Source of the DNA: Escherichia coli
Lineage (GTDB): Bacteria; Pseudomonadota; Gammaproteobacteria; Enterobacterales; Enterobacteriaceae
Reading direction: 5' to 3' (one strand)
Assembly (NCBI RefSeq): GCF_041886205.1
Contig: NZ_CP169029.1
DNA: 64,000 nucleotides
Positions 2,716 through 8,901 of the stretch are shown in pieces; within the stretch, counting starts at the first letter, position 1, and every line of letters begins with the position of its first letter. The position numbers and the translations under genes were made by a program. The notes beneath the pieces were generated by a model. The model ran no database searches, was not told the DNA's origin, and saw only the letters and a program-made list of their open reading frames with translations.

Positions 2716-2955
2716 CCATTCAGGATGAGGCGGTAAGCTTCATCCTGATATTCTTGCTTCAGTTGCGGTCCAGTTAATCATTCTAAATAACAACTGCTGA
2801 AATTATACGAATTGCGGTATGTATTTTAATTTATAACGATAATATTATTTTTATTTTCTGCAATGAACGTCACAAATAATTGTCGCTTAAGTTAAATTTA
2901 TTTTAAATGATAATAAATATCAGTTCACTTATAATTTCTTGCTTTGTAATTTTAA

Positions 2956-2969
2956 TTGATAACGATCAA
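2956..2969. promoter_or_regulatory. Candidate FNR binding site (TTGAT-N4-ATCAA) upstream of ydhY
   Basis: Perfect match ttgat aacg atcaa about 200 bp upstream of ydhY start in an AT-rich intergenic region. Confidence 0.5.
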
Positions 2970-3170
2970 TGTTAAGGGTTCAGAATAATTACATTATTTT
3001 TTCTCCTAACCATAAAGGATTAGTTTATCGGCGTTAAATCTTTTCTCATACACTATCGGGTTAGGGAAAATATCTGGTGTTGGGGACAGAGTCAGCAGCG
3101 TATTAGTTGAATGCTTAATATCAGGCTGCTGAATTGTCAGCACTGTGTTTGCGAAGAGGATGCGAAATAA

Positions 3171-3797
3171 ATGAACCCGGTTGATCGTCCACTATTAGAT
3201 ATTGGCTTAACGCGATTAGAATTCTTGCGTATATCAGGAAAAGGCCTTGCTGGTCTAACAATTGCCCCTGCGTTACTGTCACTTTTGGGTTGCAAACAGG
3301 AAGATATTGATAGCGGCACAGTAGGGTTGATAAATACACCCAAAGGGGTGCTGGTGACCCAGCGAGCGCGATGCACGGGTTGCCACCGCTGTGAAATCTC
3401 TTGTACCAACTTCAACGATGGCTCAGTAGGGACATTCTTCTCCCGTATCAAAATCCATCGCAATTATTTCTTTGGCGACAACGGGGTTGGCTCTGGCGGC
3501 GGCCTGTATGGCGATCTCAACTATACCGCGGACACCTGCCGTCAATGCAAAGAGCCGCAATGCATGAACGTCTGCCCGATTGGTGCGATTACCTGGCAGC
3601 AGAAAGAAGGCTGTATTACCGTCGATCATAAACGTTGTATTGGCTGTAGCGCCTGTACTACGGCATGCCCGTGGATGATGGCCACCGTAAATACCGAAAG
3701 TAAAAAATCCTCGAAATGTGTGTTATGCGGTGAATGCGCAAACGCCTGCCCAACAGGGGCGTTAAAAATTATCGAGTGGAAAGATATTACTGTGTGA
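3171..3797 (+). CDS. ydhY: 4Fe-4S ferredoxin-like protein YdhY (208 aa)
   Basis: Multiple CxxCxxCxxxCP ferredoxin motifs; first gene of ydhYVWXUT cluster. Confidence 0.9.
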   Translation: MNPVDRPLLDIGLTRLEFLRISGKGLAGLTIAPALLSLLGCKQEDIDSGTVGLINTPKGVLVTQRARCTGCHRCEISCTNFNDGSVGTFFSRIKIHRNYFFGDNGVGSGGGLYGDLNYTADTCRQCKEPQCMNVCPIGAITWQQKEGCITVDHKRCIGCSACTTACPWMMATVNTESKKSSKCVLCGECANACPTGALKIIEWKDITV

Positions 3798-3817
3798 ATC
3801 TTGCAAAGGAAAAAATC

Positions 3818-6571: not shown

Positions 6572-6634
6572 AATTTCAGGGAGATGTCATGGATAGGGTG
6601 GACAGTTGCAGCCACTGCATTAGGGGATAATCAG

Positions 6635-7303
6635 ATGTCCTTCACTCGACGCAAATTTGTTCTGGGGATGGGAACAGTAATCTTTTTTACTGGTTCTGCG
6701 TCTTCTCTGTTAGCGAACACGAGGCAAGAAAAGGAAGTTCGGTATGCCATGATTCATGACGAGTCACGGTGCAATGGCTGTAATATTTGCGCCCGCGCAT
6801 GCCGTAAAACTAACCACGTCCCCGCTCAGGGAAGCCGTTTATCGATAGCACACATTCCAGTCACCGATAACGACAACGAAACGCAGTATCACTTTTTTCG
6901 CCAGTCATGTCAGCACTGCGAAGATGCTCCGTGCATCGACGTTTGCCCGACGGGGGCATCGTGGCGTGATGAGCAGGGGATCGTGCGGGTAGAAAAATCG
7001 CAGTGCATCGGCTGCAGTTATTGCATTGGCGCTTGTCCGTACCAGGTTCGCTACCTTAACCCTGTCACTAAAGTGGCAGATAAATGTGATTTCTGCGCTG
7101 AGTCCCGGCTGGCAAAAGGCTTTCCGCCCATTTGCGTCAGCGCTTGTCCGGAACACGCATTGATCTTTGGTCGCGAAGATAGCCCAGAAATTCAGGCGTG
7201 GTTGCAGGAAAATAAATACTATCAATATCAGCTACCTGGTGCCGGGAAACCGCATCTGTATCGCCGGTTCGGTCAACATTTGATTAAAAAGGAAAATGTA
7301 TGA
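6635..7303 (+). CDS. ydhX: Tat-signal 4Fe-4S ferredoxin-type protein YdhX (222 aa)
   Basis: MSFTRRKFVLGMG twin-arginine-like signal plus Cys clusters; start at internal Met of track ORF 6584..7303. Confidence 0.8.
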   Translation: MSFTRRKFVLGMGTVIFFTGSASSLLANTRQEKEVRYAMIHDESRCNGCNICARACRKTNHVPAQGSRLSIAHIPVTDNDNETQYHFFRQSCQHCEDAPCIDVCPTGASWRDEQGIVRVEKSQCIGCSYCIGACPYQVRYLNPVTKVADKCDFCAESRLAKGFPPICVSACPEHALIFGREDSPEIQAWLQENKYYQYQLPGAGKPHLYRRFGQHLIKKENV

Positions 7304-8085
7304 ACCCGTCGCAACATGCTGAACAGTTTCAGAGCCAGTTAGCGAACTATGTGCCACAGTTCACTCCCGAATTTTGGCCGGTGTGGTTGATCATTGCCGG
7401 AGTATTGCTGGTTGGGATGTGGTTGGTGCTGGGGCTGCACGCCTTGCTTCGTGCTCGTGGCGTGAAGAAATCAGCCACCGATCATGGTGAGAAGATTTAT
7501 CTTTACAGCAAAGCGGTCAGATTATGGCACTGGTCGAATGCGTTACTCTTTGTATTGTTGCTGGCAAGTGGGCTGATAAATCACTTTGCGCTGGTGGGCG
7601 CAACTGCGGTCAAAAGTCTGGTTGCGTTGCATGAAGTTTGCGGATTTTTGTTACTCGCATGCTGGCTCGGCTTTGTGCTGATCAATGCTGTTGGGGGTAA
7701 TGGTCACCACTATCGCATTCGTCGTCAGGGGTGGCTGGAACGAGCGGCAAAACAAACGCGATTTTATTTGTTTGGCATTATGCAGGGGGAAGAACATCCT
7801 TTCCCGGCAACAACCCAGTCTAAATTTAATCCCTTACAGCAGGTCGCCTATGTTGGTGTCATGTATGGATTGCTGCCGTTGTTACTATTGACGGGGCTGC
7901 TGTGTCTCTATCCGCAAGCCGTGGGAGATGTGTTTCCTGGCGTAAGATACTGGTTATTGCAGGCGCATTTTGCTCTGGCATTTATAAGCCTCTTTTTTAT
8001 CTTCGGTCATCTTTATCTTTGCACCACGGGGCGTACGCCACACGAAACCTTTAAAAGCATGGTCGATGGCTATCACCGGCACTAA
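7300..8085 (+). CDS. ydhU: Membrane b-type cytochrome-like subunit YdhU (261 aa)
   Basis: Hydrophobic multi-TM ORF overlapping ydhX stop by 4 nt (operon coupling). Confidence 0.85.
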   Translation: MNPSQHAEQFQSQLANYVPQFTPEFWPVWLIIAGVLLVGMWLVLGLHALLRARGVKKSATDHGEKIYLYSKAVRLWHWSNALLFVLLLASGLINHFALVGATAVKSLVALHEVCGFLLLACWLGFVLINAVGGNGHHYRIRRQGWLERAAKQTRFYLFGIMQGEEHPFPATTQSKFNPLQQVAYVGVMYGLLPLLLLTGLLCLYPQAVGDVFPGVRYWLLQAHFALAFISLFFIFGHLYLCTTGRTPHETFKSMVDGYHRH

Positions 8086-8088
8086 CGA

Positions 8089-8901
8089 ATGATCATTACA
8101 CGAGCAGACCTGCGAGAATGGCGTATCGGAGCGGTGATGTATCGCTGGTTCCTGCGCCATTTCCCACGCGGCGGTAGTTATGCCGATATTCATCATGCAC
8201 TGATTGAGGAAGGATATACGGACTGGGCGGAGAGTCTGGTTGAGTATGCGTGGAAAAAATGGCTGGCGGATGAAAACTTCGCGCATCAGGAAGTTTCCTC
8301 TATGCAAAAACTGGCCACAGACCCCGGAGAGATACCATTTTGCAGTCAGTTTGCCCGCAGCGACGATCATGCTCGCATCGGCTGTTGTGAGGATAACGCC
8401 CGAATCGCAACCGCTGGGTATGCCGCGCAAATTGCCAGTATGGGTTATAGCGTGCGGATTGGAAGTGTCGGCTTTAACAGTCACATTGGCAGCTCCGGTG
8501 AACGCGCACGGGTTGCTGTAACCGGTAATTCTTCGCGGATAAGCAGCGCTGGAGATAGTAGTCGGATTGCGAACACCGGAATGCGAGTACGCGTTTGTAC
8601 ATTGGGTGAACGGTGTCATGTCGCCAGTAATGGTGACCTGGCGCAAATCGCCAGCTTTGGCGCAAACGCCAGAATTGCCAACAGCGGCGACAATGTACAC
8701 ATCATTGCCAGCGGTGAAAATTCAACGGTTGTGAGCACGGGCGTGGTCGACTCAATTATTCTCGGGCCAGGGGGAAGCGCCGCACTGGCATATCATGACG
8801 GCGAAAGAGTTCGCTTCGCCGTCGCCATTGAAGGTGAAAACAATATTCGAGCCGGAGTCCGCTATCGTCTTAATGAACAGCATCAGTTTGTTGAGTGCTG
8901 A
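8089..8901 (+). CDS. ydhT: Uncharacterised protein YdhT (270 aa) with internal 9-residue tandem repeats
   Basis: 270-aa ORF; C-terminal half shows repeated I-x-S/T-x-G-x-x-x-R/H units. Confidence 0.8.
   Translation: MIITRADLREWRIGAVMYRWFLRHFPRGGSYADIHHALIEEGYTDWAESLVEYAWKKWLADENFAHQEVSSMQKLATDPGEIPFCSQFARSDDHARIGCCEDNARIATAGYAAQIASMGYSVRIGSVGFNSHIGSSGERARVAVTGNSSRISSAGDSSRIANTGMRVRVCTLGERCHVASNGDLAQIASFGANARIANSGDNVHIIASGENSTVVSTGVVDSIILGPGGSAALAYHDGERVRFAVAIEGENNIRAGVRYRLNEQHQFVEC

Follow-up and report, generated by a model that had tools for sequence, protein, structure and literature searches.

Organization of the ydhYVWXUT locus

The window analysed here is a stretch of 64,000 nucleotides of Escherichia coli DNA (contig NZ_CP169029.1), and the system in question is the molybdoenzyme operon ydhYVWXUT. 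Its six genes are arranged as follows.

3171-3797, + strand: ydhY, 208 amino acids
3818-5920, + strand: ydhV, 700 amino acids
5924-6571, + strand: ydhW, 215 amino acids
6635-7303, + strand: ydhX, 222 amino acids (a longer open reading frame begins at 6584)
7300-8085, + strand: ydhU, 261 amino acids
8089-8901, + strand: ydhT, 270 amino acids

The locus is an ordinary, intact E. coli ydhYVWXUT operon, functionally no different from the K-12 reference. Gene order and protein lengths are equal to those of K-12 MG1655, all six genes align colinearly, and alignment to the K-12 proteins revealed neither frameshifts nor internal stops in any of them. The preliminary description of this DNA, which had spoken of full-length frames in six co-oriented and tightly spaced or overlapping genes, is borne out by these alignments and by the spacing: gaps of 20 nt (ydhY-ydhV), 3 nt (ydhV-ydhW), 63 nt (ydhW-ydhX) and 3 nt (ydhU-ydhT), and a 4-nt overlap (ATGA) of ydhX and ydhU. 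The gene identities that it proposed agree with Pfam and NCBIfam, both of which confirm the family assignments. Position 2716 is the base directly after the fumD stop codon. In the annotation of the corresponding RefSeq and K-12 regions, the operon is flanked by fumD on the 5' side and by the convergent ydhS on the 3' side of ydhT.

Amino-acid differences from K-12 number none in YdhY and YdhW, one each in YdhV and YdhX, four in YdhU, and three in YdhT. At the nucleotide level there are 31 differences over the six genes, nine of which alter an amino acid, as is usual where purifying selection acts within E. coli. The region 2000-9500 shows 100.0% identity to two commensal E. coli strains (6EVA and wlxctx60), and at least 80% of it is found in 5405 of 5426 complete E. 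coli genomes. The operon is already known, and the present copy adds nothing new.

FNR site, promoter, and leader

Upstream of ydhY, the following features are recognized.

2956-2969, + strand: FNR binding site TTGATAACGATCAA, the class II activator site of the ydhY promoter (K-12 literature)
2992-3005, + strand: putative -10 region (CATTAT/ATTATT) and start near 3005, deduced from the site centre (2962.5 + 42.5)
3005-3170, + strand: putative 5' untranslated leader of about 166 nt, deduced from the published -42.5
2720-2748, + strand: terminator-like hairpin with a 12-bp stem, 6 G-C pairs, and a T-rich tail (consensus scan only)
3127-3142, + strand: small hairpin in the leader (consensus scan)

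A perfect TTGAT-N4-ATCAA had been noted about 200 bp upstream of the operon; it lies 201 nt 5' of the ydhY ATG and is the sole perfect match in the 64-kb window. In a shuffle control, the expectation was 0.11 matches per window and at least one match occurred in 11 of 100 shuffles, and the motif by itself is only modestly improbable. It carries weight because of its position and because the same site, identical together with its flanks in the window and K-12, has been studied experimentally in published work. The ydhYVWXUT operon is listed among those that FNR activates directly (Category 1; Myers 2013), with a chromatin immunoprecipitation sequencing peak, an FNR-dependent rise of the transcript under anaerobic conditions, and higher sigma-70 occupancy at the K-12 ydh promoter. 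The same study gives a single FNR site centred at -42.5, close to the -41.5 that defines class II sites, and cites Partridge et al. 2008 for direct binding. A 2024 paper also counts ydhYVWXUT among the FNR-regulated molybdoenzyme operons. FNR dependence, which had been proposed as a check, has thus already been published for K-12 (Myers 2013).

The fumD-ydhY intergenic region (2716-3170) is 68% A+T and carries seven substitutions and one indel in 455 bp relative to K-12, and it diverges more than the coding sequence of the operon does (31 differences in 5,856 bp). Two of the substitutions, at 2979 and 2990, fall between the FNR site and the putative -10 region. The strong hairpin at 2720-2748, close behind the fumD stop codon, would shield the ydh promoter from fumD read-through and so split the two transcription units. 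An RNA element in the leader was considered and dropped since no Rfam family was detected in 2400-9100 at E <= 1.

The catalytic subunit YdhV

YdhV matches the AFOR_N and AFOR_C domains of Pfam (1e-67 and 3e-48, respectively) as well as its NCBIfam equivalog (1376 bits), and it is a pterin subunit of the AOR/WOR family (WorL). Its relatives in the PDB are the aldehyde and formaldehyde ferredoxin oxidoreductases (AOR and FOR) and BamB of the class II benzoyl-CoA reductase. The cluster motif CxxCxxxC is found at residues 307-314 (C307, C310, and C314), and Cys336 is present in the translation of the window. In the literature, Cys336 is a metal ligand of YdhV and the second-shell residues of the aldehyde oxidisers are absent from it, two features that otherwise occur only in BamB. 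Summaries of Reschke 2019 describe a redox-active bis-molybdopterin molybdenum cofactor (bis-Mo-MPT) in YdhV, with molybdenum favoured over tungsten, and report that no substrate was found. The metal analysis that had been proposed for YdhV is therefore already in print. Besides this cofactor, YdhV carries a [4Fe-4S] cluster.

A classification and review of June 2026 places YdhV in the Class V WORs (clade 41), which are described as membrane-associated and periplasm-oriented; none of them has an assigned activity. This agrees with the earlier statement that the substrate of YdhV is undefined. CsWOR41L, a relative from the same class, was inactive on 46 aldehydes. YdhV is probably not an aldehyde oxidase, and the aldehyde screens that had been proposed are probably misdirected, both because the protein has the BamB-type cysteine ligand without the second shell of an aldehyde oxidoreductase and because CsWOR41L showed nothing on the 46 compounds.

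The putative electron-transfer subunits YdhX and YdhU

YdhX is a 4Fe-4S dicluster protein with 16 cysteines and resembles the four-cluster subunits NrfC and PhsB. It matches the NrfC model of NCBIfam at 2.7e-74, which is under the cut-off of the model, and its second-best match is DsrO. A canonical signal for twin-arginine translocation (Tat), MSFTRRKFVLGMG (FTRRKFVL), is present at its N-terminus. When tested for an [ST]RRxFLK-type motif followed by a hydrophobic region, YdhX has both (MSFTRRKFVLGMGTVIFFTG), as the preliminary description had supposed, and the signal is kept in the homologues of two other loci (L005 and L006).

YdhU matches the PF01292 cytochrome b family (5.8e-31) and the NCBIfam model NF011582 (459 bits), and its hydropathy profile contains about five hydrophobic segments. 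It is a PhsC-like membrane protein of the cytochrome b family, in line with the cytochrome-b-like anchor first proposed. A ydhU mutant is reported to have changed sensitivity to reuterin, an aldehyde, and changed fitness with furfural and other chemicals in transposon sequencing, and a modest NarP-linked change in ydhU expression is also on record. These hints are too indirect for a substrate to be drawn from them.

The N-terminus of YdhY and its variation among loci

YdhY is likewise a 4Fe-4S dicluster protein, with four cysteine motifs at residues 68, 123, 156, and 183, and corresponds to the ferredoxin-like small subunit with four [4Fe-4S] clusters (WorS). Its N-terminus (residues 1-43; 3171-3300) consists of LTRLEFLR, a hydrophobic stretch, and then LLGC. 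It resembles a Tat-type signal in which R-L takes the place of R-R; the hydrophobic region is present, under the Kyte-Doolittle cut-off of 1.6. The LLGC at residues 38-41 is a lipobox-like sequence and is kept in most homologues. In distant homologues (at most 57% identity; the named sources include Alkaliphilus), the signal is the canonical [ST]RR[DEQ]F[LM]K, followed by a hydrophobic region that usually ends in the lipobox-like L-x-G-C. In the E. coli-type clade (at least 60% identity), the motif reads TR[L/Q/K]EFLR and the second arginine is gone, while the rest of the N-region is conserved as strongly as the mature protein.

The window was compared with 11 other loci. YdhW, YdhX, and YdhU are all present in each of the four complete loci with an R[LQK]-type YdhY (the window, L005, L006, and L014); YdhX and YdhU are absent from all six complete loci with an RR-type YdhY (L007, L008, and L010-L013), five of which have YdhW (the exception is L013). 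In four RR-type loci (L007, L008, L010, and L012), tatA and/or tatC adjoin ydhY-ydhV-ydhW, and FdhD, MoeA, or XdhC-family genes related to the molybdenum cofactor lie nearby. Since the signals of the distant YdhY proteins are canonical and Tat genes adjoin the cluster, the ancestral module was Tat-exported. Overall, it appears that YdhY-YdhV-YdhW form an ancient and widely conserved core, that YdhX and YdhU form a clade-specific quinone-coupling module, and that YdhT is a late addition. In L008, genes resembling 2-hydroxyacyl-CoA dehydratase, with an activator, stand alongside ydhY-ydhV-ydhW.

YdhW and YdhT

YdhW and YdhT each match nothing in Pfam and NCBIfam except their own NCBIfam equivalog. 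Homologues of YdhW fall into 519 cluster representatives. The protein is acidic (32 D+E against 16 K+R), contains no cofactor or cysteine-cluster motif, and has an invariant stretch R134...Y140-P-R-P (the YPRP motif). It is predicted to be a tandem winged-helix protein, and the search of the PDB with its profile returned no sequence relative. A role as a chaperone of the TorD/NarJ type was ruled out by the predicted fold, since TorD-like proteins are all-alpha.

In the E. coli-type clade, the disordered N-terminal extension of YdhW carries a motif resembling the Tat consensus (e.g. DLSRRRLFLPL, DLGRRRFLRL, and NVSRRNLFMPL), with no hydrophobic region after it. The form [SGN][RK]R-x-hydrophobic-hydrophobic is seen in loci L005, L006, L014, and L015. 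The motif occurs in nine of 81 representatives, against 0.21 expected by shuffling, and all nine are among those nearest to E. coli YdhW. In the ten loci with paired data, its presence coincides without exception with a YdhY that lacks the second arginine, and no locus with an R-R YdhY has it; these are not ten independent observations, because a single evolutionary event is possible. In E. coli itself both motifs are degenerate, R-L in YdhY and K-R in YdhW, where residues 20-28 (5981-6007) read EAKRQWLQG. The YdhW motif could provide targeting in trans, could act as a pseudo-substrate of a signal-binding chaperone, or could mean nothing.

The structural model of YdhT (mean predicted local distance difference test score 92.4) combines a five-helix N-terminal domain with a beta-solenoid of 9-residue repeats. 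The fold matches generic beta-helix proteins only (antifreeze proteins, curli, adhesins, SufD, and NosD), and no function was drawn from such neighbours. Homologues of YdhT were found under Enterobacterales names only.

Possible mechanism and alternatives

The best explanation overall, and a probable one, is a standard intact operon under class II activation by FNR, whose products form a periplasm-facing, quinone-linked YdhVYXU complex. It can be described as follows. Without oxygen, FNR at its site would activate the sigma-70 promoter in the class II manner, as shown in K-12. YdhV, YdhY, YdhX, and YdhU may assemble into a membrane-bound complex on the periplasmic side, in which menaquinol would be oxidised at YdhU and the electrons passed through YdhX and YdhY to YdhV, which would reduce a substrate that is probably not an aldehyde. 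The complex may serve as a terminal reductase of low priority that is shut down in the presence of nitrate. Since the signal of YdhY itself is without its second arginine, hitch-hiking on the Tat signal of YdhX would be the most likely route of YdhV-YdhY into the periplasm. YdhW may have the dedicated task of assembling or targeting YdhY-YdhV rather than that of carrying electrons, and YdhT may be an accessory protein specific to Enterobacterales.

Several points weigh against this explanation. For Class V enzymes, the literature reports no measurement of activity, of subunit composition, or of localisation. Only the pattern of regulation points to the direction in which the electrons would flow, and the role suggested for YdhW follows from guilt by association. 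Repression by NarL and NarP with nitrate or nitrite is reported for the operon in the title of Partridge 2008; no NarL heptamer was found in 2880-3175, either strict (TACYYMT) or relaxed (TACNNNT). Finally, YdhY without its second arginine recalls the cytoplasmic NarG with its remnant signal, and the loss could keep YdhVY in the cytoplasm.

This last point leads to an alternative that we regard as possible, though on the whole doubtful, in which the enzyme faces the cytoplasm. YdhV-YdhY would then sit on the cytoplasmic face of YdhU with YdhX on the periplasmic face, either as a transmembrane conduit of the DsrMKJOP/Hmc type or as a cytoplasmic reductase. The arginine is gone throughout the E. 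coli-type clade, the N-region of YdhY is conserved like the mature protein, which is unexpected for a cleaved signal, and DsrO ranks second among the NCBIfam matches of YdhX. However, the operon encodes no periplasmic catalytic partner for YdhX, the ancestral YdhY-YdhV module was clearly exported by Tat, and the 2026 classification puts Class V in the periplasm. YdhV was purified after cytoplasmic over-expression, which would fit a cytoplasmic enzyme, but over-expression of YdhV by itself is uninformative on native targeting.

The reverse direction of electron flow is a further tentative alternative, and we consider it rather unlikely. In this case the complex is a dehydrogenase: a periplasmic substrate, such as an aldehyde or some other compound in reduced form, would be oxidised by YdhV, and the electrons would travel via YdhY, YdhX, and YdhU into the quinone pool. 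Aldehyde oxidation is the activity of most characterised AOR/WOR enzymes, PF01292 cytochromes also occur in quinone-reducing enzymes (FdnI and HyaC), and the altered responses of the ydhU mutant include an aldehyde, reuterin, besides furfural and other chemicals. Against this stand the active site of YdhV, with the cysteine ligand of BamB and without the second-shell residues of aldehyde oxidisers, the lack of a known substrate, and the inactivity of CsWOR41L on aldehydes. Also against it, repression by nitrate, as established for NarL regulation, marks alternative reductases rather than donor dehydrogenases.

Export of the periplasmic complex may also depend on the motifs in a more elaborate way. 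In the E. coli-type clade, Tat information could be split over YdhY (the hydrophobic core and the cysteine), its obligate partner YdhW (an RR-like motif that it has gained), and YdhX (the full signal). YdhW, unrelated to TorD and NarJ, would then be a novel type of factor for targeting or proofreading in the Tat pathway that supplies R-R in trans or acts as a pseudo-substrate; this scheme is speculative, and we judge it clearly unlikely.

A sulfur reductase of the thiosulfate or polysulfide type, as suggested by automatic naming, is very improbable. RefSeq annotation by the Prokaryotic Genome Annotation Pipeline labels ydhU as phsC ('thiosulfate reductase cytochrome B subunit'), the NF011582 match of YdhU is in keeping with that name, KEGG files ydhU under sulfur metabolism, and YdhX resembles iron-sulfur subunits of the Nrf, Ttr, and Phs type. 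This alternative is weakened because no PhsA-type catalytic subunit with a bis-MGD cofactor (two molybdopterin guanine dinucleotides) is encoded; the sole pterin subunit is YdhV, of the AOR family, and the phsC name derives from homology of the anchor subunit alone. Hardly credible is a silent relic that has merely not yet been hit, with an FNR motif of no consequence here: the window does show insertions of IS1 and of the IS3 family, the loss of 16 kb by deletion, and the junction of a rearrangement, and the intergenic changes include two between the FNR site and the putative -10 region, but the coding sequence is identical to that of free-living commensals, the FNR site is unchanged, and only nine of the 31 differences from K-12 alter an amino acid.

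Gene loss and rearrangements in the window

Intactness of the operon in a genome that has lost neighbouring genes had been put forward as an argument for retained function. For an evaluation of gene loss, the 68 K-12 genes of the syntenic blocks were compared with the window.

Absent: 12 genes, ydiO to selO, lost together in a single deletion of 16 kb with an IS1 copy at its border
Truncated or split: 4 genes, lhr (5' end missing), ydhR, ydiF, and rflP
Final base unaligned by BLAST, otherwise ungapped: 1 gene, mdtK
Intact: 51 genes, the remainder

The losses among the neighbours are real, and all of them are mediated by insertion sequences (IS) or deletion; the retained K-12 genes in the window contain no stops or frameshifts from point mutation. 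The argument itself is weak, and intactness was dismissed as evidence of selection: the 51 other surviving K-12 genes surveyed are all intact too, and chance alone predicts that six adjacent genes would be spared by a few IS or deletion events. Because free-living strains carry an identical locus, the window offers no lineage-specific sign of selection either way.

An IS3-family element of 1.3 kb (10865-12171; orfA/orfB on the - strand) splits ydhR, 1.7 kb 3' of ydhT, and leaves pieces of the gene at 10643-10861 and at 12172-12261. IS1 is present in two copies of inverted orientation, at 35748-36524 and 47731-48506, with its exact terminal repeat; one is inside arpB, and the other bounds the 16-kb deletion, which truncates ydiF and rflP. 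At 29509-29627, a junction of 119 bp connects the truncated lhr (1729437 in K-12) with sequence upstream of yniB (1809293 in K-12). Its first 50 nt are presumably the right end of phage Mu, with 48 of 50 bases in agreement with the Mu R-end. By BLAST, these 50 nt have matches only in S17-1, ST18, and BW2952, strains that carry Mu. The junction is spanned by no complete E. coli genome, and its exact 45-mer is absent from 100,044 species-representative genomes. In K-12 coordinates, the first block of the window runs from 1757646 down to 1729437 and the second from 1809293 down to 1760159. The ends of the window are only 2.5 kb apart in K-12 terms, and the arrangement therefore fits either the junction of a tandem duplication of about 66.5 kb or a block translocation. 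If the tandem duplication is true, ydhYVWXUT is present in two copies.

Significance of the operon

The ydhYVWXUT operon is among the last molybdoenzyme systems of E. coli without a known substrate, and Class V WORs are common in gut bacteria; the question of the substrate is therefore real. It is not advanced by the window, which holds the standard E. coli allele with published FNR control. Among the four checks first proposed, two (FNR dependence and metal analysis) have already been done, and the aldehyde screen has little prospect of success. The comparative lead lies in how Tat motifs are distributed over YdhY, YdhW, and YdhX, together with the conserved YdhY-YdhV-YdhW core.

Comparison with known systems

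The closest counterpart is ydhYVWXUT of E. coli K-12 (b1674-b1669), which has the same genes, order, lengths, and spacing, with 99.0-100% nucleotide identity per gene. The replacements in the window are L616Q in YdhV, Q192E in YdhX, four in YdhU, and three in YdhT, and the sequence 3' of the operon differs from K-12 where the IS3-family element breaks ydhR.

In the PhsABC and NrfCD modules, as in the Ydh system, a four-cluster subunit with a Tat signal (YdhX, similar to NrfC and PhsB) is paired with a membrane quinol partner (YdhU, similar to PhsC). The Ydh catalytic subunit, however, is neither a bis-MGD enzyme nor a cytochrome c, and the system has an additional ferredoxin (YdhY) and two accessory proteins. 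NarG with its chaperone NarJ, and the maturation proteins TorD and DmsD, offer a different likeness: a degenerate twin-arginine N-terminus is kept on a redox subunit (YdhY), and the operon contains a dedicated accessory gene without a cofactor (ydhW).

BamB shares with YdhV the AOR-family fold (sequence match at E = 1.5e-44), the protein cysteine as metal ligand, and the absence of an aldehyde-oxidase second shell. It is a cytoplasmic tungsten enzyme and part of the Bam complex (with a BamBC core in the structure), whereas the Ydh system is linked to the membrane and to Tat, uses molybdenum, and has no CoA-ester context. CsWOR41LSW of Cetobacterium somerae, so far also without a substrate, combines WorL, WorS, and a YdhW-type third gene, and Tat is implicated in this system as well. 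Compared with it, the Ydh system prefers molybdenum over tungsten, has a YdhY (WorS) without the second Tat arginine, and adds YdhX, YdhU, and YdhT to the shared set.

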